Part shown: positions 9,894-52,327 of the stretch, piece after piece
How positions within the stretch are numbered: the stretch's first letter is position 1
How the letters are laid out: every line of letters starts with the position of its first letter
Origin: an uncultured Amnibacterium sp.
GTDB lineage: Bacteria > Actinomycetota > Actinomycetes > Actinomycetales > Microbacteriaceae
Direction of reading: 5' to 3'
NCBI RefSeq assembly: GCF_964244015.1
Contig: NZ_CAXTHO010000001.1
Location: 4,364-68,363 of the forward strand
DNA: 64,000 bases
Made by a program: the position numbers and the translations under genes
Notes under the pieces: model-generated
Told to the model about the DNA's origin: nothing
The model's database searches: none
The model's input: the letters and a program-made list of their open reading frames with translations, nothing else

Positions 9894-10502
9894 ATGACCG
9901 ATCCGGTGCGGGTGATCGCGGATTCCGTGCGATCGCGAGCGAGACGCGGGACCCTCGGCCCGAGCCCCGGCTCCGCGGTGCAGGAGGAGCTGCGCTCGTA
10001 CGCCGAGCACGCGTTCGCCTCCGACGCGCCGCTCATCGCGGACGAGCGCCGGGCGGAGCGGCAGATCGTCGCCGATCTGACCGGATTCGGCCAGCTGCAG
10101 CCGCTGCTCGACGACCCGACGATCGAGGAGATCTGGGTCAACGCCCCGACCCGCGTGTTCGTGGCGCGCGGCGGCATCAGCGAGCTCACGCCGATCGTGC
10201 TGGGGGAGCAGGAGGTGCGCGACCTCGTCGAGCGGATGCTCGTGTCGAGCGGCCGCAGAGTCGATCTCGCGTCGCCGTTCGTCGACGCCTCCCTGCCAGA
10301 CGGCTCCCGCCTGCACGTCGTCGTGCCCGACGTCACGCGGCGGCACTGGTCGGTGAACATCCGGAAGTTCTCCGACCGCGTGACCACCCTCGACGCGCTC
10401 GTCGGTCTCGGCTCCGTCCCTCCTGCCGCCGCCGCCTTCCTCACCGCGGCGATGCTCGCGGGGCTGAACGTGCTCGTCTCCGGCGCCACGCAGGCGGGCA
10501 AG
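9894..10502 (+). pseudogene. cpaF: Tad/Flp pilus ATPase CpaF/TadA, 5' part, interrupted in Walker A
   Basis: GFGQLQPLLDDPTIEEIWVN, VDASLPDGSRLHVV and NIRKF; ends LVSGATQAGK, after which similarity stops. Confidence 0.92.
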
Positions 10503-10510
10503 TCCACCTG
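10491..10510. other. attL of serine-integrase island
   Basis: CAGGCGG-GC-AA-GT-CCACCTG, a near-perfect dyad around the AA crossover dinucleotide (10500-10501). Confidence 0.88.
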
Positions 10511-10548
10511 GTGCGAGTGGCGCACCTACGGGGTGGAGGTGACCGGAC

Positions 10549-12018
10549 ATGCGTGGAGAGAGGCAACACGGGTCTGCGGAGCAGGTCCTGGCGTACGTAC
10601 GGATTTCAGAGGACCGCGCCGACGAGGCCGCTGGGGTCGGGCGGCAACGCGAAGATTGCGTGGCGTTATGTGCCCGACTAGGGCTCGATGTCCCCGAGGT
10701 CTTCATGGACAACGATATTTCGGCATTCTTGAATAAGAGCCGGCCGGGATATGACGCCCTGATATCCAGAGTTCGCCTTGCGCCTACTCGTCTCGTGGTT
10801 TGGCATGTCGATCGTCTTTATCGGCGGCCGCGTGAACTTGAAGATCTAATCGATCTTGTGGAAGCGAATCCGATCACCATTGAAGCGGTAATGGGTGGAG
10901 GGTTTGACCTCAATACCCATGAGGGCCGTCTCATGGCTCGACAACTCGTGGCTATTGCGTCGTATGAGTCCGGCCACAAAGCGGATCGTATTCGACGTGC
11001 CAACCGCCAGAAAGCGGAGAGAGGTGACTGGCACGGTGGGCCGCGATTTGGATACGGATTAAACGGGGCCTTAGTTCCGCGTGAGGCTGCAATTGTTCGA
11101 GAAATGGCGAATCGGTGTCTTGCGGGACAGTCATTAAGGTCCATAGCGCAGTGGCTAAACGATGAGTCGGGTGCGGTTCCGACTCATGCTGCTCAGGGGA
11201 CGTTAGGCGTGTGGCACGCTACGACGGTCAAGTCAATTTTGACGTCGGCAAGGATCTCCGGTCAGCGTGCCTATGAACCGGGTAGTCATAATGGGGATTC
11301 TCCGACTGGGCGGAAAATTCTGGGGCCGGGAAACTGGCCAGCTATAATTACTCCGGATGAAACCGCGCGACTTCGCGTGATTATTGGCTCGCCTGACAGG
11401 CGTGCATCCGCTTCGTCTATCAGGCTTCTCTCATCTATTGCAACCTGCGGACTGTGTGGTGCTGGGTTGATGTCGGGGTGCAATCGCGGTGCTGCCCTAG
11501 CTCAGAAACGGCGGCGCTACTTGTGCAAGAAAGAAGCGGGTCGGCCTGATCGTGGAGGCTTGTCGATTGTCGCTGAACCGCTCGAGGATCTCATATCTGA
11601 AGCAATTATATTGCGCTTGGCGCACACTCGGATGCCGAAAGCCCAAGGTGGGACTGGGCAGTCAGAACTCTCGGCTGCCCTTGAGCGTGTTGCGGAAACT
11701 CGAGCTCGACTTGAGGATTTGTCGAGCGACTATGTCCGCGGCTTGCTCACACGGAGTGAGTTTAGTTCCGCGCGGATGGCGGCGCAGGGAGAGATTGTGA
11801 AGTCAGAGGCGGTGATCGCAAGACAGTCTAGATCGACGGTGTTTAGCGGGATTCCAATCGGAAGCGAAAGTGGCATGAGAGCGGCCTGGGATCGATGGAA
11901 TATACCGCAACGCCGGGCAATTCTCGCCGCAATAGTCGACACACTGATTGTCTTGCCGCGCAGGGATAGCGGTCCTATCTTCCGGCCCGATCGAGTCGAG
12001 TTGAGGTTCAAGGTTTAG
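10549..12018 (+). CDS. Large serine recombinase (integrase)
   Basis: YVRIS catalytic Ser, DRLYRR, recombinase domain (GGPRFGY), zinc ribbon CGLCG...YLC; GGAGGT RBS 8 nt upstream. Confidence 0.95.
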   Translation: MRGERQHGSAEQVLAYVRISEDRADEAAGVGRQREDCVALCARLGLDVPEVFMDNDISAFLNKSRPGYDALISRVRLAPTRLVVWHVDRLYRRPRELEDLIDLVEANPITIEAVMGGGFDLNTHEGRLMARQLVAIASYESGHKADRIRRANRQKAERGDWHGGPRFGYGLNGALVPREAAIVREMANRCLAGQSLRSIAQWLNDESGAVPTHAAQGTLGVWHATTVKSILTSARISGQRAYEPGSHNGDSPTGRKILGPGNWPAIITPDETARLRVIIGSPDRRASASSIRLLSSIATCGLCGAGLMSGCNRGAALAQKRRRYLCKKEAGRPDRGGLSIVAEPLEDLISEAIILRLAHTRMPKAQGGTGQSELSAALERVAETRARLEDLSSDYVRGLLTRSEFSSARMAAQGEIVKSEAVIARQSRSTVFSGIPIGSESGMRAAWDRWNIPQRRAILAAIVDTLIVLPRRDSGPIFRPDRVELRFKV

Positions 12019-12208
12019 TGCTGGATCGTGCAATCGCGGCGATCTTGCGAATTGCGAGCGCGTCTTCGACGCCGAGCGGCACCCCGGAAATTAGGCAGAC
12101 GCGTTTCGTCCAAGCGGCAATGTCGAGATCCTTCGGGAGAGTTGAGGGTGGCGTTGTGTCGCGGATCGTGCTTGCCTGGCTTGAAATGATCGCCTCCGAT
12201 GTGCGCAT
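12008..12208 (-). CDS. Small hypothetical protein convergent with the integrase (possible directionality factor)
   Basis: 66 aa, IAAWTKRVCLISGVPLGVEDALAIRKIAAI; overlaps the integrase stop. Confidence 0.45.
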   Translation of the reverse strand: MRTSEAIISSQASTIRDTTPPSTLPKDLDIAAWTKRVCLISGVPLGVEDALAIRKIAAIARSSTKP

Positions 12209-12468
12209 CTAGTTGTGGTTGGGAGGTGCGCACATGGGGACAGAAGCGGTAACCACGGACGCGTGTCGTACCTGACAGTCCACGCCCTCAATTGTGTTAC
12301 TTCGATAGCGGATGAGGATCCGCTCCCAACAACGTGCGCGGGTGTTCCATACGACGGGACGGTCCGTGAAAGACGCTCAATTGTGAAGAGTTGGTTATCT
12401 AGTCCAGGCGTGCCGAGAGTGCACCGAGTTACATGTTGGCGATAGCACTTGTGCGAGATGCGACCCGC

Positions 12469-12633
12469 TCAGAGAGACGGCGCCTCAGCATCCGGGTCGG
12501 AGTCAGTCGACGTGATTCCGCAGTCACAGAGCCAGTAGAGGTCCGTGGGGTCACCTACGAGTTCGCGCTTGCGAAGGCAAGTTGGGCATGTAGGTGCTGA
12601 GTCGTCGAGCGCTTGGCTAAAGTTGTCGCTCAT
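12469..12633 (-). CDS. Small putative zinc-finger protein
   Basis: 54 aa, CPTC...WLCDCG; GAGGG RBS before ATG. Confidence 0.45.
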   Translation of the reverse strand: MSDNFSQALDDSAPTCPTCLRKRELVGDPTDLYWLCDCGITSTDSDPDAEAPSL

Positions 12634-12730
12634 ACCCTCATTTTGCTCTGTGCGTGATGCGTTCGCGTCCTGGTCGACTGAACGGTGCGTCATCGGCTGA
12701 TTCACGCGACAGCACATAGGGCGTAAGACG

Positions 12731-13978
12731 CTAGCGATGGAGCGTGTCTCGTCTCGAGTGCTCGCGATGCTCCGGTCGGAGGTCGCTGGAGGACGCGCTC
12801 GGTGCGGCGGCGCCGTCGCGGAGGCCGAACGAAGGCTGGTGTGCTCGAATTGTCTCGACTGACAGTGGGGGGCGGGTGTCTCGCGATCGGTCGTGATGTT
12901 GCGCGAGTCGTGCTTCGACATGTCGCAGCCGAGCTTCCGCGTCTGTGAGAGTCATCGCGTGTCGGAAAGGACGTCCCAGGCGACCCTCCGCGTCGAGCTG
13001 CATGTCCTGCGCTTGGGTCATCTCCACGCGGGCCTGCGCTACCAGCGCCTCAAGTCCGGTCACGCGGTTCTCGAGGCGTTGGACGAGGCCGAAGGCGCTC
13101 TCTAGGAACACCTCTCGAGTGACCAGAATGCTCGTCCTCGGGAGGTCTTCGAGGGAAAAGCGCATCTCGAGCGTCCCCATGCTTGGTCGGGTCGCAAGGT
13201 GGATGTCGAAACCAGAGATCTTCCCGAGGGTGCCCCAGTCGCGCCTGGTGGAGCGGGGTGCCCAGCGCAGTCTGACGTCGGCGGCCCACATGGCGAATGC
13301 TTGCGCGGCTCGGCCGCGGGACGTGAATTGCTCGCCTCGGATGTCCATCGTGAACCGGTCGCCGGAGAGGTCCCTGACGCGCGGAAGCACTGCGGCGAGC
13401 GAAGCGGCGTCGGAGTTCGCTCGGGCGATGGTGTCTGCTGCGCCGTCGCGCGTGTGAATGAGCATGTGCTCATTGCGGGAGTGCGCCCGTTCGAGTCGGC
13501 GGAGGCGAGCGACCTCGGCTTGCAGGGTCGAGTGTTCCAAGAGCAGGGGGTTGCCGGAGGAGATCGCTTTGGCCTCCGCGGCGGAGAGCGCTGCGGTGTC
13601 GATCTCGTCGATCTCGCGGGTGTCGAGGCTGCCGTGCATGACTTGGGCGATGAAGGTCGCTTTCCGTTCGACGCCTTGCCACATGTAGGAGTCGAATGAG
13701 CGTTCGGTGACGAAGCGGACGATTGCCACTTCGCTGTTCTGGTTGCCCTGTCGCAGGATCCGGCCCTCGCGTTGTGCGATGTCGGATGGTCGCCAGGGGC
13801 AGTCGAGGTGGTACAGCGCGACGGCCCGGGCTTGGACGTTGGTGCCGACGCCCATCTTCTCGGTGGAGCCGATGAGGACGGCGATGTGTCCGGTGCGGGC
13901 TGCGGCGAAGAGGCGGGCTTTGTCGGCGTCGTTCTTCGCTTCGTGCATGTATCGGATCGTGTCCGGTGGCATGCCCAC
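12731..13978 (-). pseudogene. C-terminal fragment of a large SNF2-type helicase / methylase-helicase of mobile elements
   Basis: GSTEKMGVGTNVQ, HLDCPWRPSDIAQREGRILRQGN, SFDSYMWQ; no Walker A/B or N-terminal part upstream. Confidence 0.75.
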
Positions 13979-14925: not shown

Positions 14926-16500
14926 CTACACATCGGAAAGCGGGGTTCCTACTGCGAGAGAGGTCAAGGTCGCGATCGACGGCGTGAAGCTGAACAGTGA
15001 CCCGCGGGTGTGTACCCACTGCGCGAAGTGCGCCGTGGCAGTCTGTCCGCCGCCGCGGATGGTGATGTCGCTGTCCTTGCCGATGACGGGGTCGTCACCG
15101 GTGTCGGGTGCGGGGAAGCCCGGGTTGTTGACCCAGGCTTGCTGCAGGAAGACGAACTGGTCGTGCAGGCTGGCTTGGTAGCACTGGAACAACAGTCCGC
15201 GTTCGGCGTCGACACCCTCGCCGCGCCCACCGGTGGGCGCAAACGGGAGCCCGTACGGGATGCCGCGGCGGATGATCCGGTGGACTTTCGTATCGTCCTC
15301 GGTGACCGTGATCGGAGCCTTTGCTGCTCCGCTGCGTGGGTAGACCTTGCGGATGTGGGCGACCGCGGGGGTCGTGTCGCCGTTTGGGTCGCCGGCGAAG
15401 TCGAAGTCGTTGTCGTGTGCCGGGTCCTGTGCGGATCGGACATCGGCGACGGGCTCCCGGTCGGTGGGGGTGCCGCTGCGCCACCGCCCGACGAGGCGCG
15501 CCGCAAACGCGTCGGAGGAAGGAATGCCGGTGCCGGGGTCGTTGCGGAGCGCGCCTTCGGGGAGGGTCTTGTACTGCTCCTCGACGTTGGACCAGAAGCC
15601 GGCCACATCCTGCGCGAGTCTTCGGGTAACGAGGAAGCTGCCGTCCCACATCCACCGCGGCACGACCACCGGTGCGTCCGCCCCGTTGAGCGGGTCGCGC
15701 TGGTAGCCGAGGACAAAGTCGCCTGGCGCGACGAGATCGGTGCCGAGCTTCCCCTTCACCTGCTCGGTGTGAACGGGGTCGGATTCATCGAAGCCGGTGA
15801 CGCCGGGCTGGGAGATGCCGTCTTTGAAGCCGAAGTGCTCGTGCCCTGCCGCGGCGCCGGGCAGGGTCGCCCCGGATTGCTCAAACACGATCCGGTAGCC
15901 GAGCGTGGCGGCCGACTCGCGGTGCCGGGCGAGCTCGAGGTCGAGATCCTGGACCCGGTCCGCGGCCACGCAGACCACGGCGTGGATCTGATCGCTGTCG
16001 TGGCCGAACAGCCAGTTGTCCGGGGTGTTCGCGGGTCCGTCGTCGCCGACGGCTGCAAGCACGTCTGGGTGGGCGGCGCCGTCCAGCCAGTGCTGGAGCC
16101 CAGCGTCCAGTGCCGTGCGTGACCGGATCGAATCGACCGCGGCTTCGTCAAGCTGGGCGATGCCAGCCGCGGTGAAGGACACGTTCGTCCAGACCGCGAG
16201 CATGTCCGCCGGGTCTGAGCCGCTCTGTCGCCGGCGCGCGCTGAAACGCACGTTGAACCCAGCGACTTGGTCGTTGTGCGCGATCCGGGGGAGCAGCCCC
16301 TTCAGCCACTCGCGCTCGATGTCTGCGGTCGGGAACGAGACGAACAGCAGCACTTGCTGGTCCTTGTTGAACCCGGCGAGCACATTGCCCTGGATGTTCG
16401 CGTTGGCCTGAAGCGGCGTGCTGGCTGGGTCAGCCAATGGTTGAGGGAGCGGCCAGTCCGATTCAGGAGCGACCGGCGGTGCGGGTGGTGAGTATGACAT
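14926..16500 (-). CDS. Dyp-type (dye-decolorizing) heme peroxidase
   Basis: IQGNVLAGF, EHFGFKDGISQP, GSFLVTRRLAQDV, AHIRKVYPR, IIRRGIPYG, GLLF; GGAGG RBS; no Tat signal seen. Confidence 0.92.
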   Translation of the reverse strand: MSYSPPAPPVAPESDWPLPQPLADPASTPLQANANIQGNVLAGFNKDQQVLLFVSFPTADIEREWLKGLLPRIAHNDQVAGFNVRFSARRRQSGSDPADMLAVWTNVSFTAAGIAQLDEAAVDSIRSRTALDAGLQHWLDGAAHPDVLAAVGDDGPANTPDNWLFGHDSDQIHAVVCVAADRVQDLDLELARHRESAATLGYRIVFEQSGATLPGAAAGHEHFGFKDGISQPGVTGFDESDPVHTEQVKGKLGTDLVAPGDFVLGYQRDPLNGADAPVVVPRWMWDGSFLVTRRLAQDVAGFWSNVEEQYKTLPEGALRNDPGTGIPSSDAFAARLVGRWRSGTPTDREPVADVRSAQDPAHDNDFDFAGDPNGDTTPAVAHIRKVYPRSGAAKAPITVTEDDTKVHRIIRRGIPYGLPFAPTGGRGEGVDAERGLLFQCYQASLHDQFVFLQQAWVNNPGFPAPDTGDDPVIGKDSDITIRGGGQTATAHFAQWVHTRGSLFSFTPSIATLTSLAVGTPLSDV

Positions 16501-16786
16501 TGGTGCCTCCGTGCGTCGTTGCAATCGAAGAGGCGGTCAGAGGGGCCGTCGCGCGGCAGGCTCCCACCGTGAAGAAGCGGCCGCAAGCCGTCAGTTCCGG
16601 GGGCAGGCCCGGATGGTGATCGCGGTGAGGCAGCCCCGGGGGATGTTCATGCGTGCATAACTGGTCCTCTTGAATCACTCGCACGCGATGCTGGCGGAAA
16701 CGTTGTTGCGCCTTGAGTAGACATCGATCGGTAGATGGCTCGTATGCAGCGCGGACGCCCGTGAAGAGTGATCGAGCGGAGCAGGG

Positions 16787-20964: not shown

Positions 20965-22152
20965 TTATTTTATTGCGGGTGGCTGCGCTCGCTGCTCCGT
21001 GTAACTGCGTCCATGTTTAAGCGAAGACCACACCGGTGACGCGGTCGCATTTGCAAATGATCCTGATCCTGATCCTGATCCGGAGCCACCGGCGGGGAGC
21101 TTCGGCTTCGGCTTCGGCTTCGGCACGAGGGCCTTGACGTTCGGTGTGCCCGGGGTCTTCACCCAGTCGTTGGATGCGCAGTAGGTCGCGATGTCGGTGG
21201 TGAGCGCTGACTTCTCGGCCGTGTTGACCGCGAGCTTCCAGCGGTACTTCACCGCGATCCAGTTGCGGACGTAGGTGCAGCGATACGAGGTGAGGGTCGG
21301 GAGGTAGGCGTTCGGCTCTCGATCGCCCTTGGACCGGTTGGCGTGCGTTGTCACGGCGGTGAGGGACGCGCCGTACCCAAGGTCGTTCGCATTCGCCTCG
21401 CGCTCCTTGGCGCTCCAGCCGTAGGCGCCGGACGTCCATGCTTCCTCGACCGGCACGAGGTGGTCGATGTCGAGCTTGCTCGCCACGGTGGTCGCCGTGC
21501 CGTCGTAGGGCGAGGTCCATGTGCCCTTCTTCACGGTGTGCCGGGTGTTCTCCGTGACCTTCGTCTTCGACTCGCTCTTCAGCACCTCCGCGCGGGTGTT
21601 CTCGTGGTCCCCGTTGGCGTCGATCCAGAGCTCGAACTTCGTCCGCTTGTAGCTCGAGCTGTGCGACTCGGCCTTGACCTTCAGCTTGCCGAGAAGCGCG
21701 AGGGCAGACGACTTGCCCGTCGGGGGAGTGAGGACCTGCGTCACGGTCTTCGTGAAGTCGGTGCTCGTCATACAGGGGAGTGCGGTGAAGGTGCTGTCGA
21801 GCGCGCAGGACGTCACCGCGATCGAGACCGCCGCTGGGCCAGCGCTCTTGGCGCGCGGCACCCGGACGACGTAGTCGCTATCGGAGTCGTACGCGCCCGC
21901 GTTGACCGTGTCGACGACAACGCCGTCGACGAGCGTCTCGAACTTCCCGCTCGCGGGGTACGTGTCCTCATCGGCGCTGCCGATGGCGTCCCAGTCGTAC
22001 TGAGCCGTCAGGGTGTTGTCCCGCCAGGACGCGGACGCGTTCTCGATCTCCGAGGTTGCGCCGGAGTCGGCGTGTGCGGCGAGTCCAGGCGCGAGCACCA
22101 GGAGCCCGGCGAGGGCGGCGGTCGTCAGGACAGCGAGGGGACGCTTCATCAC
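20965..22152 (-). CDS. Secreted HNH-type nuclease (DUF1524-like) with signal peptide
   Basis: Signal ending AAHA; WTSPYDG, LDIDHLVP..EAW.SGA, ANDL, NRSKGD; PK and GS repeat tail. Confidence 0.8.
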   Translation of the reverse strand: MMKRPLAVLTTAALAGLLVLAPGLAAHADSGATSEIENASASWRDNTLTAQYDWDAIGSADEDTYPASGKFETLVDGVVVDTVNAGAYDSDSDYVVRVPRAKSAGPAAVSIAVTSCALDSTFTALPCMTSTDFTKTVTQVLTPPTGKSSALALLGKLKVKAESHSSSYKRTKFELWIDANGDHENTRAEVLKSESKTKVTENTRHTVKKGTWTSPYDGTATTVASKLDIDHLVPVEEAWTSGAYGWSAKEREANANDLGYGASLTAVTTHANRSKGDREPNAYLPTLTSYRCTYVRNWIAVKYRWKLAVNTAEKSALTTDIATYCASNDWVKTPGTPNVKALVPKPKPKPKLPAGGSGSGSGSGSFANATASPVWSSLKHGRSYTEQRAQPPAIK

Positions 22153-22689: not shown

Positions 22690-23034
22690 ATGGCCCAGAA
22701 GTACATTGTCCAGCTCGTTGATGACCTCACGAACGAGCCCATCGAGGACGGCGCGGGGGAGAGCGTGCAGTTCGCTCTCGACGGCGTCAGCTTCGCGATC
22801 GACCTCAACACCGAGCACGCGGAAGAGTTCCGCGGCGCTCTGAGCAAGTACGTCTCGGCCGCCCGCAAGGCGGACGCTGCGTCCTCTAAGAGCCGGCCGA
22901 CGGCGCGCACCGCTTCGGCTGCCAAGAGCGATCTCAAGAACGTCCGCGAGTGGGCTTCTAAGAACGGCTTCGAGGTATCGAGCCGCGGCCGCATTCCCGG
23001 CAATGTCCAGCAGGCGTACGCCGCCGCGCACTGA
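22690..23034 (+). CDS. lsr2: Lsr2 family nucleoid-associated / xenogeneic silencing protein
   Basis: MAQK..VQLVDDL, FALDGV...IDL and VREWA..NG.EVSSRGRIP (RGR AT-hook). Confidence 0.95.
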   Translation: MAQKYIVQLVDDLTNEPIEDGAGESVQFALDGVSFAIDLNTEHAEEFRGALSKYVSAARKADAASSKSRPTARTASAAKSDLKNVREWASKNGFEVSSRGRIPGNVQQAYAAAH

Positions 23035-28588: not shown

Positions 28589-28655
28589 GGGGGGACCTCG
28601 TCTGCGGCATGGAAACTCATATACTACCGCTTCCGAAGTGCAAAGCGGAGGTGTC

Positions 28656-40950: not shown

Positions 40951-41985
40951 TGAACCGTCCCGGGTTTCAGGCCGCTTCGTTGCTGGCGGCTTCGTCGGCT
41001 GACGGGCCGGTTTCTTGAGCGTAATAGTTGGCCTCGAACTCGGTTGGCGGGATGTTGCCGAGGGTCGAGTGCAGCCGGGACGTGTTGTACCAATCGACTC
41101 AGCCGAAGGTCACTGCTTCGACGTCGGAAAGGGCCCTTCAAGGCGGCCGGGCGGAACGGTGATCCCGTGCGGATCGCCTCGTCCTTGAACAGCCCCATGA
41201 CCGTCTCCGCGGCGGCGTTGTCATATGCGTCACTGACCTATCCGATCGACGCGACAAGCCCTGCGAGGGCGACTGTCTCAGTGAAGCGAATGGATGTGTA
41301 TTGCGATCCGGCGTGACGTATCAATCCGGCCGCGACAGGGCGTCCGGAGTGGTCGCGTCACCAGCGCGCCACCTTCAAGCAGGCCTCGACGAACGCGGTG
41401 TCCTTGACCGTTGAGACCTCCCAACCGACGATCATTCTGGAGTACAGGTCGATCGCGAACGCGACCTAGACGAACCCGGACCACGTCGCGACGTAGGTGA
41501 AGTTGGTGACCCAGAAGTGGTTCGCGAACGGTGCGGTTAAGTCCCGGTTCAGGAGGTCACGGGCGCGCTTGCCGTCCTTGGCCGGGATCGTGGTCGTGGT
41601 CTTCCGGCCCCGGATCACGCTGGCCATGCCCTCGTCCCGCATCAATCGGTCGACGGTGTGCTTCGACACATCCGGGAACCCCTTGCGGGCCAGCGAGGCG
41701 GTCATCTTCCGGCGCCCGTAGAGCACCTCGGGACGTTGCAGACCTCGGGCGTCGCGTTGCCGCAGCTGCCGGAACACGTCGATGATCGCGGCATCGTCGA
41801 CCGCCCGTCCCGACGGTGCGCGGCGGCGCCGCGCGCGGTATGACCTTGGAGCGACGGCGACGCCCTGCGATCGCAGGACATCGCTCGTCGACTCGACGCC
41901 ATGGCCGGCCTCGCGCATCTGATCGATTAAGCGGACGAGCAGCGCTGGTGAGGGTCGAGTTCCCTCGCGAAGAAAATCGAGGCCA
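40951..41985 (-). mobile_element. Second, truncated IS3-family copy (pseudo-transposase)
   Basis: IR TGAACCGTCCCGGGTTTCAGGCCGC; YGRRKM, WVTNFTYV, AETVMGLFK; stops and frameshifts; other end missing. Confidence 0.85.
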
Positions 41986-41989
41986 CTCC

Positions 41990-42388
41990 ACCCGCAACGT
42001 GCCGCTCGTGGACCGCGGGCTGATTGCCGAGCTGCGCCGCTACCTGCTCACTCATCCGAACTCCGGCGACCCGACGCGCTGTTCTGGCCGGGTAGGGGAG
42101 TGGGGTCGCACGCGCTCGACTATGGCGGCGTCCTCGACGTCGGCAGCTTCCGCCGCAACTACTTCCGGCCCGCACTGCGCGAGCTCGGCCTGCCCGACAT
42201 GCGGTTCCACGACCTCCGACCACACCGCGGCGTCGCTGTGGCTCGCAGCCGGGTTCAGCACGTGGCAGGTGTCCCGCCGCCTCGGCCACGCGAACACCAA
42301 CGCCACGGACGCGATCTACGCGCACCTGTACCCGAGCGACTACAGCGACGACATCGCAAATTTCGATGCGCTCAGAAGTAGGGGGTGA
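41990..42388 (+). pseudogene. Tyrosine integrase C-terminal remnant 1
   Basis: RNVPL, FRRNYFRPAL, RFHDLR/HTAAS, LGHAN...IYAHL catalytic motifs, split by frameshifts. Confidence 0.8.
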
Positions 42389-42437
42389 CCGTTTGGTCCC
42401 GCCCGGTCATACTGACGAGCGGCAAGGAGGTCATCCG

Positions 42438-44108
42438 ATGAAGATTTTCTACGCGGCACCAGGTACCAAAGCTGTCAGACAGGCGGGCAGCCTGCTTCTC
42501 CGTTCGCTCAACTGGAATGACTGGTTCGAGTTTCGGACCCTCTTCGAATTGGTCTACGTCGACGAACGCGGCGTCGAAGTGAACATTGGCAGTGTGAAAA
42601 TTGGCGATCTCGAACATGAGTACAAGAACGTTGATGGCGCTGAGACGCCACTACCGCCTGCGTTCGATGAGTTGCCCCCTCGGTTTATCTCTATTGGGCA
42701 GGGCGATTCCTACTATGAGCGGCTGCTCGAAGTGCTCGGTGGCAGTCAGATGCGTGCCGTGCTCCGCGCGCTAGGCGATCTCGCTATCAATCCGTCGCGC
42801 TTTGAAGAGTTGCGTGGAATCCCACTCGTACGAAAATCACTGTTTCGAGACTTGAATGTCGCGGTGGTTAGGGGGTCCTTCGCGCGTCTAGCCCAGGGGG
42901 ACTTGGTCGAGTCGGCTAATTTCCATCTCAAGTTCCAGGCAAAACCCTCGGACCCCTGGCACTCGTCAACTGCTCCGCTTCTTGATTTTGAAGTTGACCC
43001 CGAATCGATGCCACCGACGAACGTACATGCGTTGATTGGTCGAAACGGGTCCGGTAAAACGACTCTGTTGAAGGCGATGGCGCGATCTATTATTGGCAAG
43101 CCTTTTGTGCGGCCAGGAGACGGCAGTTTCGAGTTGGCGGATGCGGGTTCTGGCCTTTCGATCGCGAGTCTTGTATATGTCTCGTTCAGTGCATTTGATG
43201 AAGTAGATGTGCCTGTGCTTGATAACTCGGTCGCGTATGACCGGCCGTACTCCTACATCGGGCTTCAATACCTGAGTGAAGACGAGGGTGACAACAGTTG
43301 GTCCTGGGAGCCAGAGACCCCAGATCCACGGACCCCTGAAAAGCCAGATGCGAAGAAGGTGACGCGCGCGGCCGGTGAGCTAGGCGGCGAGTTCGCCCGA
43401 AGTGCATGGGTGGTGCGACAGCAGCCCTCATCTCTCGAACTATGGCAAGTCGCACTCGAGCTGCTCGAATCAGACCAGAACTTCAAGTCTGCCGAAGTGG
43501 CGGATCTAGCGCGGCCATCTCTCGAAGGTGAGGATGAGGAAACGTACAAGAATAGGGCGGAGAACCTATTCCGTCGTAACCTTAGCTCTGGGCACAAAAT
43601 AGTCCTTCTTGCTATGACTCGCCTGGTTCAGACGGTAACCGAGCGCACCCTGGTACTCATTGATGAACCTGAAGGTCATCTTCACCCGCCTCTGCTGTCG
43701 GCGTGGATGAGGGCGCTGTCCTACTTGATGAAGGAACGTAATGGTTTAGCCGTAGTTGCAACCCATTCGCCGGTTGTTCTGCAGGAGGTCCCTCGACGTT
43801 CGGTCTACGTAATCAATCGTGAGGGCGACGAGCAGAGCGCTGACCGGGTCGACATTGAAACGTTCGCCGAGAATGTCGGAGTTCTTACTCACTCCGTATT
43901 TGGATTGGAAGTAACGAGTTCCGGTTTCTATACCCTCCTAGTGGATGCTGCAAAAGAACTCGGGGTCTACGCTGAAGTTCTACAACGATTCGACTCGCAG
44001 GTCGGGTTTGAGGGAAGGGCTTTGCTTAAGTCCATTCTCCCAGGGCGGATCGAGCCGAGAATTCCTTTTCGCCAGCGGCGGTCGCACAATGACCGTGCAG
44101 AAGGTTGA
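42438..44108 (+). CDS. AAA_21/ABC-type ATPase, PtuA (Septu)-like
   Basis: GRNGSGKT, LSSGHK, LIDEPEGHLHPP, ATHSP; AAGGAGG RBS. Confidence 0.85.
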   Translation: MKIFYAAPGTKAVRQAGSLLLRSLNWNDWFEFRTLFELVYVDERGVEVNIGSVKIGDLEHEYKNVDGAETPLPPAFDELPPRFISIGQGDSYYERLLEVLGGSQMRAVLRALGDLAINPSRFEELRGIPLVRKSLFRDLNVAVVRGSFARLAQGDLVESANFHLKFQAKPSDPWHSSTAPLLDFEVDPESMPPTNVHALIGRNGSGKTTLLKAMARSIIGKPFVRPGDGSFELADAGSGLSIASLVYVSFSAFDEVDVPVLDNSVAYDRPYSYIGLQYLSEDEGDNSWSWEPETPDPRTPEKPDAKKVTRAAGELGGEFARSAWVVRQQPSSLELWQVALELLESDQNFKSAEVADLARPSLEGEDEETYKNRAENLFRRNLSSGHKIVLLAMTRLVQTVTERTLVLIDEPEGHLHPPLLSAWMRALSYLMKERNGLAVVATHSPVVLQEVPRRSVYVINREGDEQSADRVDIETFAENVGVLTHSVFGLEVTSSGFYTLLVDAAKELGVYAEVLQRFDSQVGFEGRALLKSILPGRIEPRIPFRQRRSHNDRAEG

Positions 44109-44971
44109 GGAGGCTTCCTGCCCCAGACTTCGGCGTAGTCGACATTCTCAGCTCCTTGCGGACGTCGACGAAGACGGTGCGTCTGCAGGGTATGAGTGCA
44201 CAGGCTGTGCAAGCGGAACGGGATCTCGCAAACGCGGGCGCTGCTGAGGCGATCGCGACTGTGGTACCACGCTTCCCGGGGATGACGGCGCAGCAGGAGG
44301 ACGACTTCAAGTCCGGCTACGCGAAGCTCCGGCGCAAGGAAGGCGGTGCAAGGCGCTACTACAACCGCCTGATGAAGGCTCCGCTCCTCCGGCGTTGCCC
44401 GTACTGCTACGACCGTCAAGTGTCAGAGATAGATCATTACCTTCCCAGGAGTTCCTTTGCGCGCTTGGCAGTTGTTCCTCTCAATCTCGTGCCCCTTTGT
44501 CACGGCTGCAATAAGCAGAAGCTCAATTACGCTCCGTCCCCTAGTCGTCCTCCGCTGCTGCATCCCTACTTCGACTTCGCTGAGTCCGAGCAATGGATCG
44601 GAAGCTCGCTCGACGAGGACAACTTCGTCACTACGTTTTATGTCAATGTCCCTGCGCCGTGGGATGAGGACACTCGAAAGAGGGTTGAGAACCACTTCGA
44701 AGTGATGAAGCTCGGCCAATTTTGGTCCGGAAGCGCTGCGGTCTACTTCTCAACGGTGTGGGCGCGTCTGCTGCGCATATACCGGGCTAGCGGAGTCTTC
44801 GCAGTGCAGGACTACCTGCTAGAGGAGGCCGAGCTCGTAGTCGAGGGCCATGCCGAGCCGTGGAAGTTTGCCCTGTTGATGGCCTGGGCTGAGAGCGAGT
44901 GGTTCTGTGAGTGCAGGTGGCGGGGTCTGATCATGGTCGAGCTGGAATTACTGCTCGACGATGATTACTGA
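44105..44971 (+). CDS. HNH endonuclease, PtuB-like
   Basis: CPYC...EIDHYLPRS...NLVPLCHGCNKQK, LLHPYFD; TTGA overlap with the ATPase gene. Confidence 0.85.
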   Translation: MRRLPAPDFGVVDILSSLRTSTKTVRLQGMSAQAVQAERDLANAGAAEAIATVVPRFPGMTAQQEDDFKSGYAKLRRKEGGARRYYNRLMKAPLLRRCPYCYDRQVSEIDHYLPRSSFARLAVVPLNLVPLCHGCNKQKLNYAPSPSRPPLLHPYFDFAESEQWIGSSLDEDNFVTTFYVNVPAPWDEDTRKRVENHFEVMKLGQFWSGSAAVYFSTVWARLLRIYRASGVFAVQDYLLEEAELVVEGHAEPWKFALLMAWAESEWFCECRWRGLIMVELELLLDDDY

Positions 44972-45198: not shown

Positions 45199-45250
45199 CG
45201 CTTCGTGCAGCGATGAGGAGCGACATCGTCGCGGTGGAACGGAGCAATCG

Positions 45251-46088: not shown

Positions 46089-46604
46089 GTGACCACGCTT
46101 CGTAGCCTTCAGGATGAGATCGTTTATGGACGCGATTCGAGTCACTTGCGCGTCTTCGTCAGCTCAAAAATGAACGGCACTTTGGACGCTGAACGCGTCG
46201 TTGCAGCTAAAGCAATAGAAGCGCTACATGGGCACCGCGCGTGGTACTGGGAGCGCGACGCGCCTATGGGGGTTCTTCACTCCGAGCGCGAATGCACAAG
46301 TTACGCACGATCGAGCGACAGCATCGTGCTCATAGTGGGAGACGAATTGTCTGCGATCGTGCTCGCCGAGTACGAGGCCGCATCACAAGGCGGAGCCGAG
46401 CGATACTTATTCGCACGGGGGAACATTCACAGGCCACCGGACGTAGTCGACTTTCTGGCTCGCGAACGGGACCACGTAGTCTATCGCGAATTTGAGAACA
46501 CTGCTGAACTCGAGACCCACCTCTACCGAGCATTGACGCTAATACTCGTACGAAACGCTCGAGAGCAGCTCGTCCGCAGACGCTCGCGGAAGAGGTCGAA
46601 ATGA
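46089..46604 (+). CDS. Stand-alone DUF4062 (TIR/NDT-like) domain protein
   Basis: RVFVSS...L.AER, C...SD.IVLIVG, VLAEYEAA, F....EL pattern. Confidence 0.75.
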   Translation: MTTLRSLQDEIVYGRDSSHLRVFVSSKMNGTLDAERVVAAKAIEALHGHRAWYWERDAPMGVLHSERECTSYARSSDSIVLIVGDELSAIVLAEYEAASQGGAERYLFARGNIHRPPDVVDFLARERDHVVYREFENTAELETHLYRALTLILVRNAREQLVRRRSRKRSK

Positions 46605-49072
46605 ACCGAAGTGCAACCCAGTGGGACGAGCTGTTCGGCTCTGGGGAAGTAGCCGACCGCGACTTTGAGAGCTTTGGCCAAGATCTCGTTGAAGCGGCAC
46701 TAAGGGATGATCCCTCGGAACTTATCGGATTTATTCATCTCGCCGCCGAATTTGCACGAGGTAATCTTGAAGGCTTTGCGCTCTCTATCATCGGCTTAGG
46801 GACGGCTCGCTGGCGCGGCGACTTGAAGGGATTCGACGATGCAAACGTGTCGGTTGAGGGCGTCAGGCGTACTCTGACCCAAAACGATGTCGATCCGTCT
46901 CAGCTCAAGGCTGAGCTTCTCTTCTCACTAGCGGAACTAGAGCGCGCGCGCAGCGAACGTGACCAAGCGCTAGATGCGCTGAGGCGAGCAGTCGAAATCT
47001 TCTTAGCCCTCGATGAGCACCTAAGGGTTGCAGATTCGCTGAAACTAGCGGCTATCATAGCCTTCGAGAAGAAAGACCTTGGAGAAGCGGATCGGCTAAG
47101 CGCGCACGCGCGAGATCTATACGCTGCCCACGGTCAGACCGAGGATGCACTCGGCGTCGCGCTAAATCGGCTCCAGTATGCCTACTCCTCCGGCGAGCCA
47201 GGTATCTTACGATCTCGTCTCGATGAACTTTCTGACATCAATCTGCCTGCCTATGGCGCTGCCGTGATGGCTCGCTTCGAAGCGCTTTGGCAGACCACCG
47301 AGCCTGGTTCGAGTGAGGCCCGTGAATATTTTCGTCGAGCACTCCGTCTAGCTGATCTATCGTACGACGAGGAATTGCGGATTCTCATCCGCCGAGATCT
47401 GGGAACCTTCTACGCAAATCGGGGTCAGCGCCGGTGGGCAAGGCACTGGTGGCAGCGCGCGCGGGAGATGGCTCAAAGCGCCAGACTTCAAGAAGACGAA
47501 GCCGAAGTTCTGCGCAGCTTCGCGTTTCTGGCGGTCGAAGAGGACAATCTTGAACAGGCTGAGCAATTGTTCGGCGAAGCATCGGAACTCAGTGCCCGGT
47601 CGGGCGACACAGCAGGCGCGCTGCACGACCGCGCAGATGCTCTTGCTGCTCTGCTCGGCGCAGAACTGCAGCGCGCTGGTGCTACTTCCGCGGAGGAGGT
47701 TCGCGCGGAGTTCGACACTAAGGTTATTTCGCCTCTGCTGGGAACGCTCGACTTGCTCGAGGCCCGACGCGACGTGGTGTGGGCGGCTCGCATCGTCAGG
47801 AATCTGCAAGTTGCCTGGATTTTCAAGGAGGCGCAGGGGGAAGGAGCGGCTCTGCTTGGTGAGCGCGCGAACGGTGCCGCCGCCGCGCTCGAACCCGAGT
47901 ACCGAAAGGCGCTACTCCGCGGTGCGGGCCTGCTGCTAATACAAGACGAGCAGGCATCCCAGGGTGTGGCTCGCCTTGAAGAATCCGCTCAATTGGAGGA
48001 GGACGACGCGCAGTTTATCGCAGAGGACCTATGGCAACTCGCGCTGGAAGTCGATGGCCGCCTCGGTCGCCCTCGCGAGGCGATGGCTCTGGCAGATCGG
48101 GCAATCGACTTGTTCGCTGAGACGCGTGCGCTGACGTCGCTCGGCAACGCGCTAAATGACTCGGCGCTGATGGCGGAACGTGCAATGGACCCAGTCAATG
48201 CGCGATCGCGCCTAGAGCGAGCGCGAGTTCTTGCTGAGGAGCAAAGTGACCGCGTGCTTGGGGCCCTCGTAGTGTTCAATCTTGCTCATCTTGATCGTCG
48301 CGAGGGTCGCATTGCGGAGGCGCGGCGCGGCTTTTCCGACGCAGCTCAAATGTCACTAAGTGTGGGGATACGCGAGCAGGCAATTGAGTGTGAGATTGAG
48401 CTTGGCATTTGTGATTTGATCGAAGAGAAAGATTTAAAAGGTGCCTACGAGATAGGGAGCAACGCTGAGAAGTCCGCGATTGAATTGAGGGACGATCGCC
48501 TCGTGGGCGACGCGCTGTCCCTTCAAGCCAGCGTGAACTTCGCCCAAGGAGAGTTCGGGCGAGCGGCGGATCTCTGGCGGCGCAGTATGGCGGCTGATGC
48601 GACGGCCGACCCCGGAGAACGAGAGGCGTTCATATTAGAAGCGCTGGCGCGTATTCCTGAGTACAAGCGTTTTGACCGGGAGTTGAGCCGAGCTGTTCGT
48701 CGTGCTCAGAGGACCGATACTCGTGATGGACTGGTAGGAAACTTGTGGCGCCCGGCGCTGACATGGTTGCGTGCTGGGCGGATAAAGCGTGCCGCTGAAG
48801 TACTTGCTGTGGCCGCGCTTCTCGGCGCCGAGGCGTGGGGTCAGCGCCGGCGGAGCTACTCTGCGGCGAATTATGCGGCTCTCTCGCGGGCCGGAATGCA
48901 GAGTTTGGCCGAGGGTTTGGCCGGTCTTTTTGCTGTCCAGCTTATTGACGAGTTCTCTGACGAGACTCGCACCGAGCTCCTTGCGGAAACTAGTCGACAG
49001 ATCGAGCGGATAGCGGGAAGCGATGTGTCGGCAAGTCTGCTGAGGTTTCTGAGCGACGACACCGCCGAGTAG
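46601..49072 (+). CDS. All-helical TPR-repeat protein, 823 aa
   Basis: Repeated A..L..LG/A....G....A units; ATGA coupling to the DUF4062 gene; no Walker motifs seen. Confidence 0.75.
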   Translation: MNRSATQWDELFGSGEVADRDFESFGQDLVEAALRDDPSELIGFIHLAAEFARGNLEGFALSIIGLGTARWRGDLKGFDDANVSVEGVRRTLTQNDVDPSQLKAELLFSLAELERARSERDQALDALRRAVEIFLALDEHLRVADSLKLAAIIAFEKKDLGEADRLSAHARDLYAAHGQTEDALGVALNRLQYAYSSGEPGILRSRLDELSDINLPAYGAAVMARFEALWQTTEPGSSEAREYFRRALRLADLSYDEELRILIRRDLGTFYANRGQRRWARHWWQRAREMAQSARLQEDEAEVLRSFAFLAVEEDNLEQAEQLFGEASELSARSGDTAGALHDRADALAALLGAELQRAGATSAEEVRAEFDTKVISPLLGTLDLLEARRDVVWAARIVRNLQVAWIFKEAQGEGAALLGERANGAAAALEPEYRKALLRGAGLLLIQDEQASQGVARLEESAQLEEDDAQFIAEDLWQLALEVDGRLGRPREAMALADRAIDLFAETRALTSLGNALNDSALMAERAMDPVNARSRLERARVLAEEQSDRVLGALVVFNLAHLDRREGRIAEARRGFSDAAQMSLSVGIREQAIECEIELGICDLIEEKDLKGAYEIGSNAEKSAIELRDDRLVGDALSLQASVNFAQGEFGRAADLWRRSMAADATADPGEREAFILEALARIPEYKRFDRELSRAVRRAQRTDTRDGLVGNLWRPALTWLRAGRIKRAAEVLAVAALLGAEAWGQRRRSYSAANYAALSRAGMQSLAEGLAGLFAVQLIDEFSDETRTELLAETSRQIERIAGSDVSASLLRFLSDDTAE

Positions 49073-49758: not shown

Positions 49759-49870
49759 GGTGTCCCGCCGCCTCGGCCACGCGAACACCGACACCACGGC
49801 CGCGATCTACGCGCACCTGTGCCCGTGCGACTACAGCAACGATCTGGCCCGGTTCGAGGTGTTCGAGGCG
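49759..49870 (+). pseudogene. Tyrosine integrase C-terminal remnant 2
   Basis: 49759-49837 matches 42268-42346 at 74/79 nt (LGHA...IYAHL). Confidence 0.8.
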
Positions 49871-49955: not shown

Positions 49956-51005
49956 ATGGCGACCTACGGCTTCCGCATCCACACCCTGACGCCTTACCTA
50001 CAGCGGCATTACAAGACGCTGCTGAACGTGGAGGACGTGTCGAGGGCGGGCGGCGAGCCGGACTCGCTCAATCAGGTTTACAACCAGCTGATCGCGATGC
50101 GCGGCGACACGAAGTTCGGCACCCCGACCTACATGACGACGCCTCCGGAGGAAGCTGTCCGGCTCGCTGCGCAGGAAGCGGCGGAGAATCTGGCGTACTT
50201 CACGGTGCTGGATGTCTCGCGGCTCGGCCGAACGATCGAGGTACTGGTGGAGACGGGCAGGGAGTCCGACCATGACGGCATTCGTCGTCGCGACGGTTCC
50301 CTGGAGGACGCCCGTGGTCGGGCGGCGATCCGCACTAGCACTGTGTTGCTCGTGTTCCCGACCGCAGGGGAGCACGCGTTCATGGTTTCAGAGGTCCGCG
50401 GGCGCGGCTCTGCTGGGGTCCTGCTGATGGACTGGGTCACTCGGCTGGCGCAGCGCGCGGCCGTGTCGTACGACGAAGGTGGCATACGGACCGAACTGCC
50501 ATGGCTCAACTGGAAGCCCACCCCGCGAATCGATGGCGAGCGGCTCGACGGCATTCTGGAACGCTCGTCAAACTTCTCCTTCACCCTTCGACGTGAGGCT
50601 GTGAGCTCGACCGGAGAGCGCAAGAGCTACGACATCGAGGTGGTTCAGTACGGGCTCAAGAAGACTCCGGTCGAGGCGGTGCTCAACGTCTTGATGAAGC
50701 TGTCATCGCGCAAACATTCCGGAACGGAGGCGCAGCGACGCGTCGCGGCGGCGGCGGATGTGCTGACGCTCGTGGAGCCCGATATCACGAAGGTCGAGTT
50801 CACTGACGCCGAGATGTCGTTCGATGAGAACGGCAAGAAGCAGACCGTGACGTCAGAGACCGTGGACGAGCTGTTCATCTACCCGTTGGGCTCCGACCGT
50901 CCAAGCGCGAGCAAGTTGAAGTCGGTGGCAGGGCCCATCATCGAACGGATCGCAGCGAACCTGAACTCGCAGGTCGCGACGGATGCCGAGGAGGAGGGCG
51001 CATGA
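49956..51005 (+). CDS. Hypothetical soluble protein, 349 aa
   Basis: Long ORF with alpha/beta pattern; ATGA-coupled to a membrane protein gene. Confidence 0.75.
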   Translation: MATYGFRIHTLTPYLQRHYKTLLNVEDVSRAGGEPDSLNQVYNQLIAMRGDTKFGTPTYMTTPPEEAVRLAAQEAAENLAYFTVLDVSRLGRTIEVLVETGRESDHDGIRRRDGSLEDARGRAAIRTSTVLLVFPTAGEHAFMVSEVRGRGSAGVLLMDWVTRLAQRAAVSYDEGGIRTELPWLNWKPTPRIDGERLDGILERSSNFSFTLRREAVSSTGERKSYDIEVVQYGLKKTPVEAVLNVLMKLSSRKHSGTEAQRRVAAAADVLTLVEPDITKVEFTDAEMSFDENGKKQTVTSETVDELFIYPLGSDRPSASKLKSVAGPIIERIAANLNSQVATDAEEEGA

Positions 51006-51562
51006 GCAGTCGCCTCGTCCCCACGCAGGTGTTCCGCGCGCACTGGAAGGCGCTGAGCGACTACCGCGGCGACAAGATCGTGCCGGACCGCACCACGCGC
51101 ACCCTGGTCGTCGCGATGCCTGTCGTGGCTGGCGTGCTGTTCGGATTGCTCGGCGGTCGGCTCGGAGCGCCAGACGCGCTCCTGGCTGCCGTGTCGCTGC
51201 TGGCAGGCGGCTTCTTGGCGGCGTTCAGCCAGGTCGCCACGTTCCGTGCTCGGCTGACTGAGCGCGCCGAGATGATGCCCGATGCCGAGCGGGCCGACCG
51301 CGACTCCCTGGATGAGACCGCCGCGCATCTGCTCGTCGCCGCGTACATGTCGGGTATCACGGCGCTCGTCCTCGTGATCGCGACGAACGTTTCCGAGGAC
51401 AAGCACGGTGGCGTCGTCGGCTGGTGGGGTGCGCTCGCTGTCGCCACCGGGCTGCACGTGCTGATCGTGTTCGCTATCGCGATTCCGCGCCTCTACAACG
51501 CCTACGCCCACACCAACGGCGTCCGCAAGGAGCTGAGCGGGACGCATCGCGGCCGACGCTGA
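51002..51562 (+). CDS. Hypothetical membrane protein (about 4 TM)
   Basis: HWKALSD N-terminal helix then four hydrophobic segments. Confidence 0.75.
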   Translation: MSSRLVPTQVFRAHWKALSDYRGDKIVPDRTTRTLVVAMPVVAGVLFGLLGGRLGAPDALLAAVSLLAGGFLAAFSQVATFRARLTERAEMMPDAERADRDSLDETAAHLLVAAYMSGITALVLVIATNVSEDKHGGVVGWWGALAVATGLHVLIVFAIAIPRLYNAYAHTNGVRKELSGTHRGRR

Positions 51563-51572
51563 CGCAAGCCGT

Positions 51573-51734
51573 TCAGCGAAGCAGCAGGGATCTGACGACG
51601 ACGCCTACCAATACCGTGCCGCCGACGGCAGTGGCGACGAGTATCGCCGCGAGCACCATCAGAAAGCCGAAACGTACGGTCGTCGCCCAGTCACTGCTCG
51701 ACGCGCGCCACATGTAGCGGAGCAGGCGGTGCAT
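51573..51734 (-). CDS. Small single-TM hypothetical protein
   Basis: MHRLLRYMW...DWATTVRFGFLMVL; weak support. Confidence 0.3.
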   Translation of the reverse strand: MHRLLRYMWRASSSDWATTVRFGFLMVLAAILVATAVGGTVLVGVVVRSLLLR

Positions 51735-52121
51735 CCATGTCGCACGGCGCGTCTTGAGCGAGTGAGGGTTCTGCGGTCGGCGAAAAGCCGGAGGTTCCGA
51801 AGCCACTTGTTTCCACCATCGTTCAGCAGCACCGCGGGTACGGCGCTGATGGCGACTGGTGGAGGGGTCACCGCGTTCTGCTCCTGATTCCGCTCGGGCC
51901 GGAGGAGCAGCCGTTCGGTGGCCACTGTCGCTCTGTTCGTTTGAATCGGCTCCTGCAGCGCGTACCGGCACTCAGAGGCTCTCGACGCATTAGGGGTTTT
52001 GCTGCTGCTGTACCCCGATTGTCCGTCAGGCGGGGGACATCGTCAAGCCGGAGCCGCGGGGTTTGGCTGGGATCTGTCGTGCCAGCGCCTAGGCCGATCG
52101 GCCGCGATCCGCGTAGTTACG

Positions 52122-52164
52122 GGTGGGCCCCGTGGGGCTCTAACCCACGACCCGCGGATTGAAA
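52122..52164 (-). other. tRNA-Lys-like 3' half (att core of a tyrosine-integrase element; not a full tRNA)
   Basis: Reverse complement TTTCAATCCGCGGGTCGTGGGTTAGAGCCCCACGGGGCCCACC; no D-arm or 5' half next to it. Confidence 0.7.
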
Positions 52165-52307
52165 TTTCGAGAGGTCTGGGGTTTGCAACCACCGTGTGTC
52201 GTGGCGACTGCACGGACCCCAAATTCCGCAATGATCAGTAGTTCCGCAAGCTTCTGTCTGTCTGGTCTTCAGAGCGTCAGCTTCGCTGCCACTGGTGTCA
52301 AACGCGA

Positions 52308-52327
52308 CAGGTGGTAAAGACCACGAT
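52308..52327. other. attR of serine-integrase island
   Basis: CAGGTGG-TA-AA-GA-CCACGAT; left arm is the exact complement of the CCACCTG arm at attL. Confidence 0.88.

Follow-up and report, generated by a model that had tools for sequence, protein, structure and literature searches.

A serine-integrase island at the Walker A lysine codon of a Tad pilus ATPase gene in an Amnibacterium-like genome, and the integrase clade that shares this target

Serine integrases are valued tools for genome engineering, and the way in which they choose their attB sites is poorly understood. In Bacillus subtilis, skin (in sigK) and SPbeta (in spsM) are serine-integrase elements that lie in genes and are removed from them by excision, which restores the gene. 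The comK prophage of Listeria (A118/phi10403S; PMC7397523) is likewise a serine-integrase element inside a coding sequence, and its precise excision restores comK. Durrant et al. 2022 (PMC10083194) catalogued thousands of large serine recombinases (LSRs), and the portion of that work considered here lists T2SSE among the enriched targets, therefore LSR insertion into a T2SSE gene is an already known class. Furthermore, Guedon et al. 2017 (PMC5704250) reported serine-recombinase integrative mobilizable elements (IMEs) of Firmicutes in the traG, SNF2 and Maff2 genes of Tn5252-type integrative and conjugative elements (ICEs). Here we analyse a stretch of 64,000 nucleotides (the window) from an uncultured Amnibacterium sp. 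of the Microbacteriaceae (contig NZ_CAXTHO010000001.1, positions 4,364 to 68,363), in which a large island with its own serine integrase lies inside cpaF/tadA, the ATPase gene of a Tad pilus locus.

The cpaF gene is cut at the codon of its Walker A lysine. The N-terminal half (203 codons, window positions 9894..10502, + strand) ends with the Gly-Lys of the motif (GATQAGK), and the C-terminal half (207 codons, 52317..52940, + strand) has this same lysine as its first residue. At the left junction (+ strand, 10482-10512) we read GCC ACG CAG GCG GGC AAG|TCCACCTGGTG, where the AAG occupies 10500-10502 and is followed by TCCACCTGG; at the right junction (+ strand, 52306-52334) we read GACAGGTGGTAAAG|ACC ACG ATG CTG AAC, the C half resuming at 52317. 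Both halves, present in the list of open reading frames (ORFs), matched Pfam T2SSE (PF00437), the first over profile positions 3-155 and the second over 155-279 (1.9e-24). As these matches abut at 155/155, the break falls within one profile position, that of the Walker A lysine. When the halves are joined over the shared AAG, the result is a CpaF ORF of 409 aa with the P-loop GATQAGKTT intact, which aligns from 1 to 409 without stops to CpaF proteins of the same genus (at most 91% identity). In the window, the truncated ORF runs on into the island for 77 out-of-frame codons up to 10736 (9894-10736), thus overlapping the start of the integrase gene.

Regarding the attachment sites, attL (10476..10528, + strand) is composed of the host B arm, the core AA (10500-10501) and the integrase-proximal P' arm GTCCACCTGGTGCGAGTGGCGCACC, and attR (52290..52345, + strand) of the distal P arm GTCAAACGCGACAGGTGGTA, the core AA (52317-52318) and the host B' arm GACCACGATG. 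The two sites have only the 2-bp core AA in common, as is usual in LSR elements, and the island measures 41,817 bp from core to core. Its G+C content (55-69%) is below that of the flanks (70-76%). In the reconstructed attP, CAGGTGG-TA-AA-GT-CCACCTG, the 7-bp arms are exact reverse complements, for which the chance at a fixed place is about 6e-5, and the site is overall an imperfect inverted repeat centred on the core (..GACAGGTGG-TA-AA-GT-CCACCTGG..). The attB arms agree with those of attP at 6/7 positions on the left (CAGGCGG) and 4/7 on the right. The P' arm of attL is kept in 19 other loci of the integrase clade described below (15 T2SSE loci plus L019, L022, L027 and L051), and the attR arm of the island (GTCAGATCCGACAGGTGGTAAAG|ACGACG) also borders a Promicromonospora element. 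An earlier, sequence-only reading of this DNA had claimed a serine-integrase insertion of about 41.8 kb in the Walker A codons of cpaF, a frame and P-loop restored by the AAG join, attP arms perfectly complementary over 7 bp and centred on AA, and a left attB arm matching at 6/7. All of this agrees with our junction reads, profile matches and computed sites, and the core AA is confirmed by sister elements with an attL that reads GGCAA|T.

The interrupted gene has the features of a Tad/Flp pilus ATPase, that is, a T2SSE domain with a Walker A motif followed by tadB (52937-53800), tadC (53788-54729) and three TadE-like genes (55737-57044), and its orthologues are named CpaF in the sources. This remainder of the tad operon (52937..57044, + strand) is open in all its genes, and the domains T2SSF, T2SSF and TadE were also found on a 98%-identical contig from a near-conspecific strain (L074). 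The interval between tadC and the TadE-like genes is variable among such strains: 0.8 kb in the window (54732-55538), 2.5 kb in L074 (3274-5734) and around 8 kb in L079 (3205-11378), where it includes genes of the beta-lactamase family, an MFS gene and an FtsK_SpoIIIE-domain gene.

The Walker A lysine is essential in ATPases of the PilT/VirB11 type. CpaF powers both the assembly and the retraction of Tad pili (PMC12019362). Because the insertion splits the P-loop, it must inactivate this CpaF, so this tad locus should be off and its pilus would be lost.

We surveyed one genome per prokaryote species and sampled the clade by peptide patterns, so that more distant members are missed. This yielded 41 homologous integrase loci, with 57-63% identity to the integrase of the window, in Microbacterium, Agromyces, Compostimonas, Frigoribacterium, Promicromonospora, Brevibacterium, Kocuria, Dietzia, Gordonia, Propioniciclava and other genera. 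The insertion point was a Walker A lysine codon in 31 of them. The largest group (15 loci) has a CpaF-like (T2SSE) half that ends or starts exactly at this lysine. Thirteen loci have the C-terminal part of a relaxase-type AAA_30 helicase, with first residues K-T-T-A-M-N-A-L, one locus has an ABC_tran gene beginning K-T-T-T-M, and two have other K-[ST]-T flanks. No P-loop flank could be assigned in the other 10 loci, which lie at contig ends, have partial integrases, or have rearranged or non-P-loop flanks. The split halves of cpaF were 37.6, 40, 76 and 82 kb apart in sister genomes, and those of AAA_30 genes 10.4-12.3 kb apart in the three genomes examined, 3/3.

The same loci inform about the exchanged core. 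On the N side, the cpaF elements of the reverse orientation and the AAA_30 elements join the host as GGN-AA|T-ACCACATG, and on the C side as ...-AA|G/A-ACC, therefore the exchanged core is the AA of the lysine codon. Among the CpaF-like loci, the integrase is divergent from the C half in 12 of 15, and has the orientation of the window in the other three (3/15). Read relative to the integrase, the sequence is AA-G-TCCACCTGG in the forward group and TT-C-TCCACTTGG in the reverse one, in short AA-G-TCCAC versus TT-C-TCCAC. In Bxb1 and phiC31 the polarity of insertion depends on nothing but the asymmetric dinucleotide at the centre of the site. As expected from those two systems, insertion orientation in this clade tracks AA versus TT in attP. 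Within sub-groups, integrases from different genera, and even from different families, are identical or almost so, which indicates recent and wide transfer.

We also considered whether a short core is a sufficient target. This was rejected, because none of the 63 GGNAARACNAC sites in the genome of the window is occupied, nor is either of two more exact copies of the 15-mer GCGGGCAAGACCACG.

The window element resembles the LSR elements with intragenic attB of PMC10083194 in having the LSR at its edge, a 2-bp core, a disrupted gene and a target gene shared with distant LSRs. Nevertheless, the portion of that text considered here describes neither a crossover at the Walker A lysine, nor movement within one clade among T2SSE, AAA_30 and ABC genes, nor the AA/TT flip. 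More generally, in the literature that we searched we did not find descriptions of the Walker A lysine codon as a serine-recombinase crossover, of the reuse of this codon by one clade across T2SSE, AAA_30 and ABC genes, or of AA/TT orientation pairs.

Putting these results together, we consider it very probable that the window carries a non-conjugative, non-phage island of 41,817 bp, placed in cpaF by its own serine recombinase, that this recombinase belongs to a clade which uses the P-loop lysine codon, and that the island is likely a decayed, ICE-derived defence island. According to this explanation, an imperfectly palindromic attP recombined, in an Amnibacterium-like host of the Microbacteriaceae, with an attB made of the Walker A loop DNA (GGC-AAG-ACC-ACG) of the chromosomal Tad-pilus ATPase gene cpaF, and the strands were exchanged at the AA with which the invariant lysine codon begins. 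Across many Actinomycete families the clade reuses this codon in orthologous or paralogous tad ATPases, in AAA_30 helicases of other mobile elements and in an ABC ATPase. Since the same clade is found in relaxase and ABC Walker A codons, we argue that the site was chosen for its sequence conservation rather than for pilus control. The P-loop would thus serve mainly as a landing pad whose extreme conservation makes it available in any new host, and the loss of the pilus would be a side effect, of possible but not certain benefit to the element. It is plausible that an inactive pilus would remove a phage receptor and limit DNA uptake.

The integrase gene (10549..12018, + strand) encodes a large serine recombinase of 489 aa. 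The sequence-only reading had judged this ORF intact, and the domain searches support it: we found the Resolvase (PF00239, 1.8e-23), Recombinase (PF07508, 5.9e-13; 49.4 bits for a cut-off of 21.1) and zinc-ribbon domains, the last one (Zn_ribbon_recom, PF13408, 7e-5) with 23.5 bits, slightly below its cut-off of 25.3. Furthermore, Ser20 (YVRISED) aligns with the nucleophilic Ser (VIRLSR) of the 'Integrase' chain 9iu2 (500 aa), the one relative with a solved structure, which we take to be Bxb1. Actinobacteriophage integrases, such as those of Streptomyces phage R4 and 9iu2 (presumably Bxb1), have the same domain architecture, but they are only around 30% identical. The R4 integrase was the best phage match, with 32% identity, and the phage and plasmid collections contained no integrase above 34% and no member of the clade (at least 57%). 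Therefore, the integrase of the window is not a known phage or plasmid integrase.

The integrase gene lies 47 bp downstream of the N half of cpaF on the same strand, and its ribosome-binding site, GGAGG, is inside the P' arm, 47 bp from the crossover. A scan predicted no promoter-like or terminator-like site between the start of cpaF and the integrase, and the scan around attL and attR gave nothing useful. In the integrated state the integrase may be readable from the tad promoter, judging by this arrangement. Immediately downstream and convergent with it there is a small conserved ORF of 66 aa (12008..12208, - strand), with the core motif LPxGFDVxAWTRxACExSGVPxxVxDPVxLxKLRxL, which stands beside the integrase in more than 30 loci of the clade. 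It had no Pfam match, and its AlphaFold model shows two short helices (pLDDT 71), too small for a meaningful fold search. This ORF is a candidate recombination directionality factor (RDF), accessory or regulatory factor.

With the integrase and the att sites intact and the small ORF present, excision would be possible in principle. If attL and attR recombined precisely, cpaF would be whole again, and the restored protein, as predicted from the joined ORF, differs by 2 aa from the CpaF that a 98%-identical strain encodes.

Relatives with an empty cpaF site, which the sequence-only reading had proposed to look for, do exist. Twelve representative genomes of the same genus read an uninterrupted TCN GGN GCN ACN CAG GCN GGN AAG ACN ACN, and a protein search with the joined CpaF returned 409-aa proteins with 98-100% identity. 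The contigs of these proteins are near-conspecific Logan assemblies (SRR28386223, SRR28386221 and SRR28386233) that match the DNA on either side of the island with 98%, 95% and 95% identity respectively, and cpaF-tadB-tadC is intact in them. The joined cpaF differs from the 98% contig by 28 nucleotides and 2 amino acids. When we polarised these differences with the two 95% contigs, the lineage of the window showed 12 synonymous and 0 non-synonymous changes (P around 2e-7 if neutral). Therefore, either the insertion is much younger than the divergence of this lineage, of around 1%, or the split gene is still under selection; in short, the substitution pattern points to a recent insertion or to a cpaF that is still selected.

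Two genomes of the same genus showed other fates of this gene. In L073 (G010:C3:440700-442300) the cpaF orthologue looks frameshifted or pseudogenised, in three pieces and with one in-frame TGA, in an assembly that is only 70% complete. In L072 (G001:C3:346300-361700) cpaF is split elsewhere, after ...EEIWIN at around residue 85, by a 13.9-kb insert that lies between two copies of an 11-bp direct repeat, TCTGGATCAAC. This insert, in whose large ORFs Pfam recognised no recombinase, would represent another type of element that uses cpaF. From these sequences, loss of the pilus by other routes seems to be tolerated within the genus.

Regarding the nature of the island, the gene that links it to a known backbone is a remnant of an SNF2-type helicase next to the integrase module (12731..13978, - strand). 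It is 5'-truncated and consists of the C-terminal 415 aa, 63.5% identical to residues 1472-1864 of a 1892-aa protein in the sister locus L066, and the N-terminal 1,470 aa of that protein had no match. A SNF2-type helicase of around 1,890 aa is a backbone gene of the sister elements. One of these, of 82 kb in a Micrococcales genome (G048), has the full 1892-aa helicase together with a TraG/VirD4 coupling protein of a type IV secretion system. When their cargo was compared, the island and its sisters had nothing in common beyond the integrase, the small ORF and the remnant of the helicase. Among the island ORFs of at least 250 aa, with smaller ones only partly scanned, Pfam gave no conjugation, replication or phage-structural domains. 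The ICE reading was rejected, as no relaxase, coupling protein or VirB4-type ATPase was among those ORFs, and so was the prophage reading, as the ORFs scanned against Pfam had no terminase, portal, capsid or tail domains (PHROGs were not searched). Because phage and conjugation genes are missing and a backbone gene is truncated, the island looks derived from a decayed ICE, and it is most likely a non-conjugative derivative of such a lineage that now carries defence cargo.

Some points weigh against this explanation. Ten of the 41 loci lack an assigned P-loop flank, including L027, which reads N-T-T. The integrase of the window is a long branch, with around 63% identity at most to any other. 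No second copy of the island or of the exact integrase was found in public assemblies, and the island is present once in its own assembly, therefore the activity of this integrase is inferred from its relatives. The origin from an ICE is based on one shared truncated gene and on one sister element with a coupling protein.

A possible but rather unlikely alternative is that the island is an immobile scar, that is, a single integration followed by decay, after which excision is impossible and cpaF is permanently dead and due to degrade. The truncated backbone helicase, the IS3 remnants and an 84-bp internal repeat (see below) would fit such a decay. Furthermore, no RDF was recognised, and the loss of the pilus is tolerated, as cpaF is frameshifted in G010 and split elsewhere in G001. 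Nevertheless, the integrase and the small ORF are intact, as are the two att sites, and cpaF, tadB and tadC are without any decay.

The next alternative is a regulated and reversible pilus switch of the active lysogeny type, in which conditional excision restores cpaF and piliation and the island re-integrates afterwards; for example, transcription from the tad promoter that continues past the N half into the integrase gene would trigger excision and act as an on/off device for the host. This agrees with several observations: cpaF can be precisely restored, the integrase is intact, the small ORF conserved through the clade could be the RDF, no promoter- or terminator-like site separates the integrase from the N half 47 bp upstream on the same strand, the split cpaF has zero non-synonymous changes on its lineage, and the comK prophage of Listeria is a precedent (PMC7397523). 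The comK element, skin and SPbeta are prophages or their relics, with demonstrated regulated excision and known RDFs, whereas the island has no phage genes, and its excision and RDF are predictions. However, replication or transfer genes to keep an excised circle were not found in the island ORFs scanned. Most of the sister elements are inserted the other way round, which prevents transcription of the integrase from the tad promoter, so read-through is not a feature of the clade. The logic of a pilus switch is also inapplicable to the relaxase and ABC genes that the same clade targets, and the absence of the island from all the close relatives sampled fits a recent gain as well as switching. 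Therefore, we regard such a switch as improbable.

Equally doubtful is a broader proposal that combines both ideas, with 'P-loop integrases' specialised on Walker A DNA (GGN-AAR-ACN-AC) and an excision driven by the tad promoter that makes the island a host-coupled switch of pilus and DNA uptake. In this case the Walker A motif would be a near-universal portable landing pad, retargeting between ATPase families would go through changed recognition of the arms, and an integrase without its own promoter would be triggered to excise by induction of the pilus operon together with the small ORF.

Finally, an assembly chimera, with foreign DNA misjoined into the contig, is hardly credible: the genome is fragmented (219 contigs) and the G+C of the island differs from that of its flanks, but the left and the right junction use the same AA within one codon, their P and P' arms also border sister elements in independent and in some cases complete genomes, and the island is present once in the assembly.

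Under the preferred explanation, of an ICE-derived island carried by a clade that recognises the P-loop lysine codon, the main interest lies in this integrase clade rather than in the single island. Its crossover on the P-loop lysine codon, its use of at least three ATPase families and its AA/TT polarity make a natural series for studies of retargeting. The near-identical integrases in different families also mark a route for defence islands and ICEs across Actinomycete families. Tad pili are required for natural transformation in Micrococcus luteus (PMC4322843), so the price of the spread of such an island is the knock-out of the pilus type that transformation needs in that species. If conditional excision were true, the system would be a non-phage counterpart of active lysogeny.

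The predicted cargo of the island is largely made of anti-phage defence genes, with several known systems clustered on mobile DNA as in other defence islands. The sequence-only reading had already assigned defence genes to the island, and Pfam and PADLOC recovered a dGTPase, a Septu-like pair, a GmrSD_C protein and a DUF4365-TPR-PIN protein. The defence-type dGTPase has an HD domain (38506..40143, + strand; PADLOC dGTPase 9e-76; HD and HD_assoc), and the Septu-like pair (42366..44971, + strand) consists of a PtuA-type ATPase and an HNH nuclease (PADLOC PDC-M01A 5e-159, PtuA 6e-139 and PDC-M01B 9e-66; HNH). The GmrSD-like protein, of the type IV restriction kind, is at 20965..22152 on the - strand (GmrSD_C 1.4e-9), and the DUF4365 nuclease-TPR-PIN protein of 1237 aa at 23590..27303 on the - strand (DUF4365 3e-29, PIN-TPR-GreABC 6e-14, PADLOC Aga_REase 7e-19). 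A three-gene operon at 28557..36177 on the + strand encodes proteins of 513, 315 and 1740 aa, the last being a DEAD/DEAH helicase. PADLOC gave no match to it and Pfam matched only the helicase core (DEAD and Helicase_C), and the operon may be an undescribed defence system.

The other genes of the island are a DyP-peroxidase-like protein of 532 aa (14926..16524, - strand; DyP_N 1e-10, Dyp_perox_C 5e-7), a homologue of the xenogeneic silencer Lsr2 (22690..23034, + strand; Lsr2 4e-22, Lsr2_DNA-bd 9e-15), a DUF4062-like protein with an 823-aa TPR protein (46089..49072, + strand; DUF4062 weak, TPR_12 3e-10), and a two-gene cassette of 349 and 186 aa without Pfam or PADLOC match (49956..51562, + strand). 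There are also a transposase remnant with a weak rve_3 match (36651..37181, - strand) and an IS3-family remnant with a frameshift pseudoknot (41466..42306, - strand; HTH_21 1e-10; Rfam ALIL at 41847-41981, E 6e-6). This ALIL pseudoknot was the only hit when we scanned the island with Rfam for tRNA fragments. We also observed an 84-bp direct repeat, 93% identical between its copies (42268-42351 and 49759-49842), which brackets the Septu-like and DUF4062/TPR pairs; its first copy is just upstream of the IS3-type remnant, around 290 bp from the pseudoknot. These repeats may represent a composite-transposon-like capture of defence cassettes.

Regarding the sister elements, L075-L077 (Brevibacterium, Propioniciclava and Helcobacillus) are of 10-12 kb, with near-identical integrases, and split the Walker A motif as GPAGAGK|TTAMNAL in relaxase-type AAA_30/TraI-like helicases. 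A long inverted repeat, GTCAAACCCGACACGTCGAC-AA-TACCACATGTCGGGTTTGAC, forms their attP, and they are probably parasites of other conjugative elements. They resemble the Firmicutes IMEs in being small LSR elements at specific sites in conjugation genes of other mobile elements, but those IMEs belong to another phylum, use other target genes and have no reported link to a P-loop codon; the element of the window, in turn, lies in a chromosomal pilus gene and carries defence cargo. In Compostimonas the paralogous target is also of tad type, with a T2SSE half from profile position 155 followed by T2SSF and TadE/G-like genes. In Microbacterium azadirachtae a 7.3-kb element (L062, G044:C66:46000-55000) occupies the same Walker A Lys codon of cpaF with a distant recombinase (512 aa, 30% identity) and different inverted-repeat ends (GCAAAACCTGCGATTATGCCTC...), and the same genome has, on another contig, an element of the clade type in a paralogous T2SSE gene. 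The sister island of Promicromonospora aerolata (G050, L070-L071) is of 40 kb and has the same att arms, and its cargo, judged by eye, is not of the defence kind: a chromate transporter, a metal-binding lipoprotein, an MFS protein, a gamma-glutamyltranspeptidase, DabA/DabB-like proteins, an FtsK-like ATPase and three copies of a 299-aa transposase. Therefore, the cargo of this element family varies widely.

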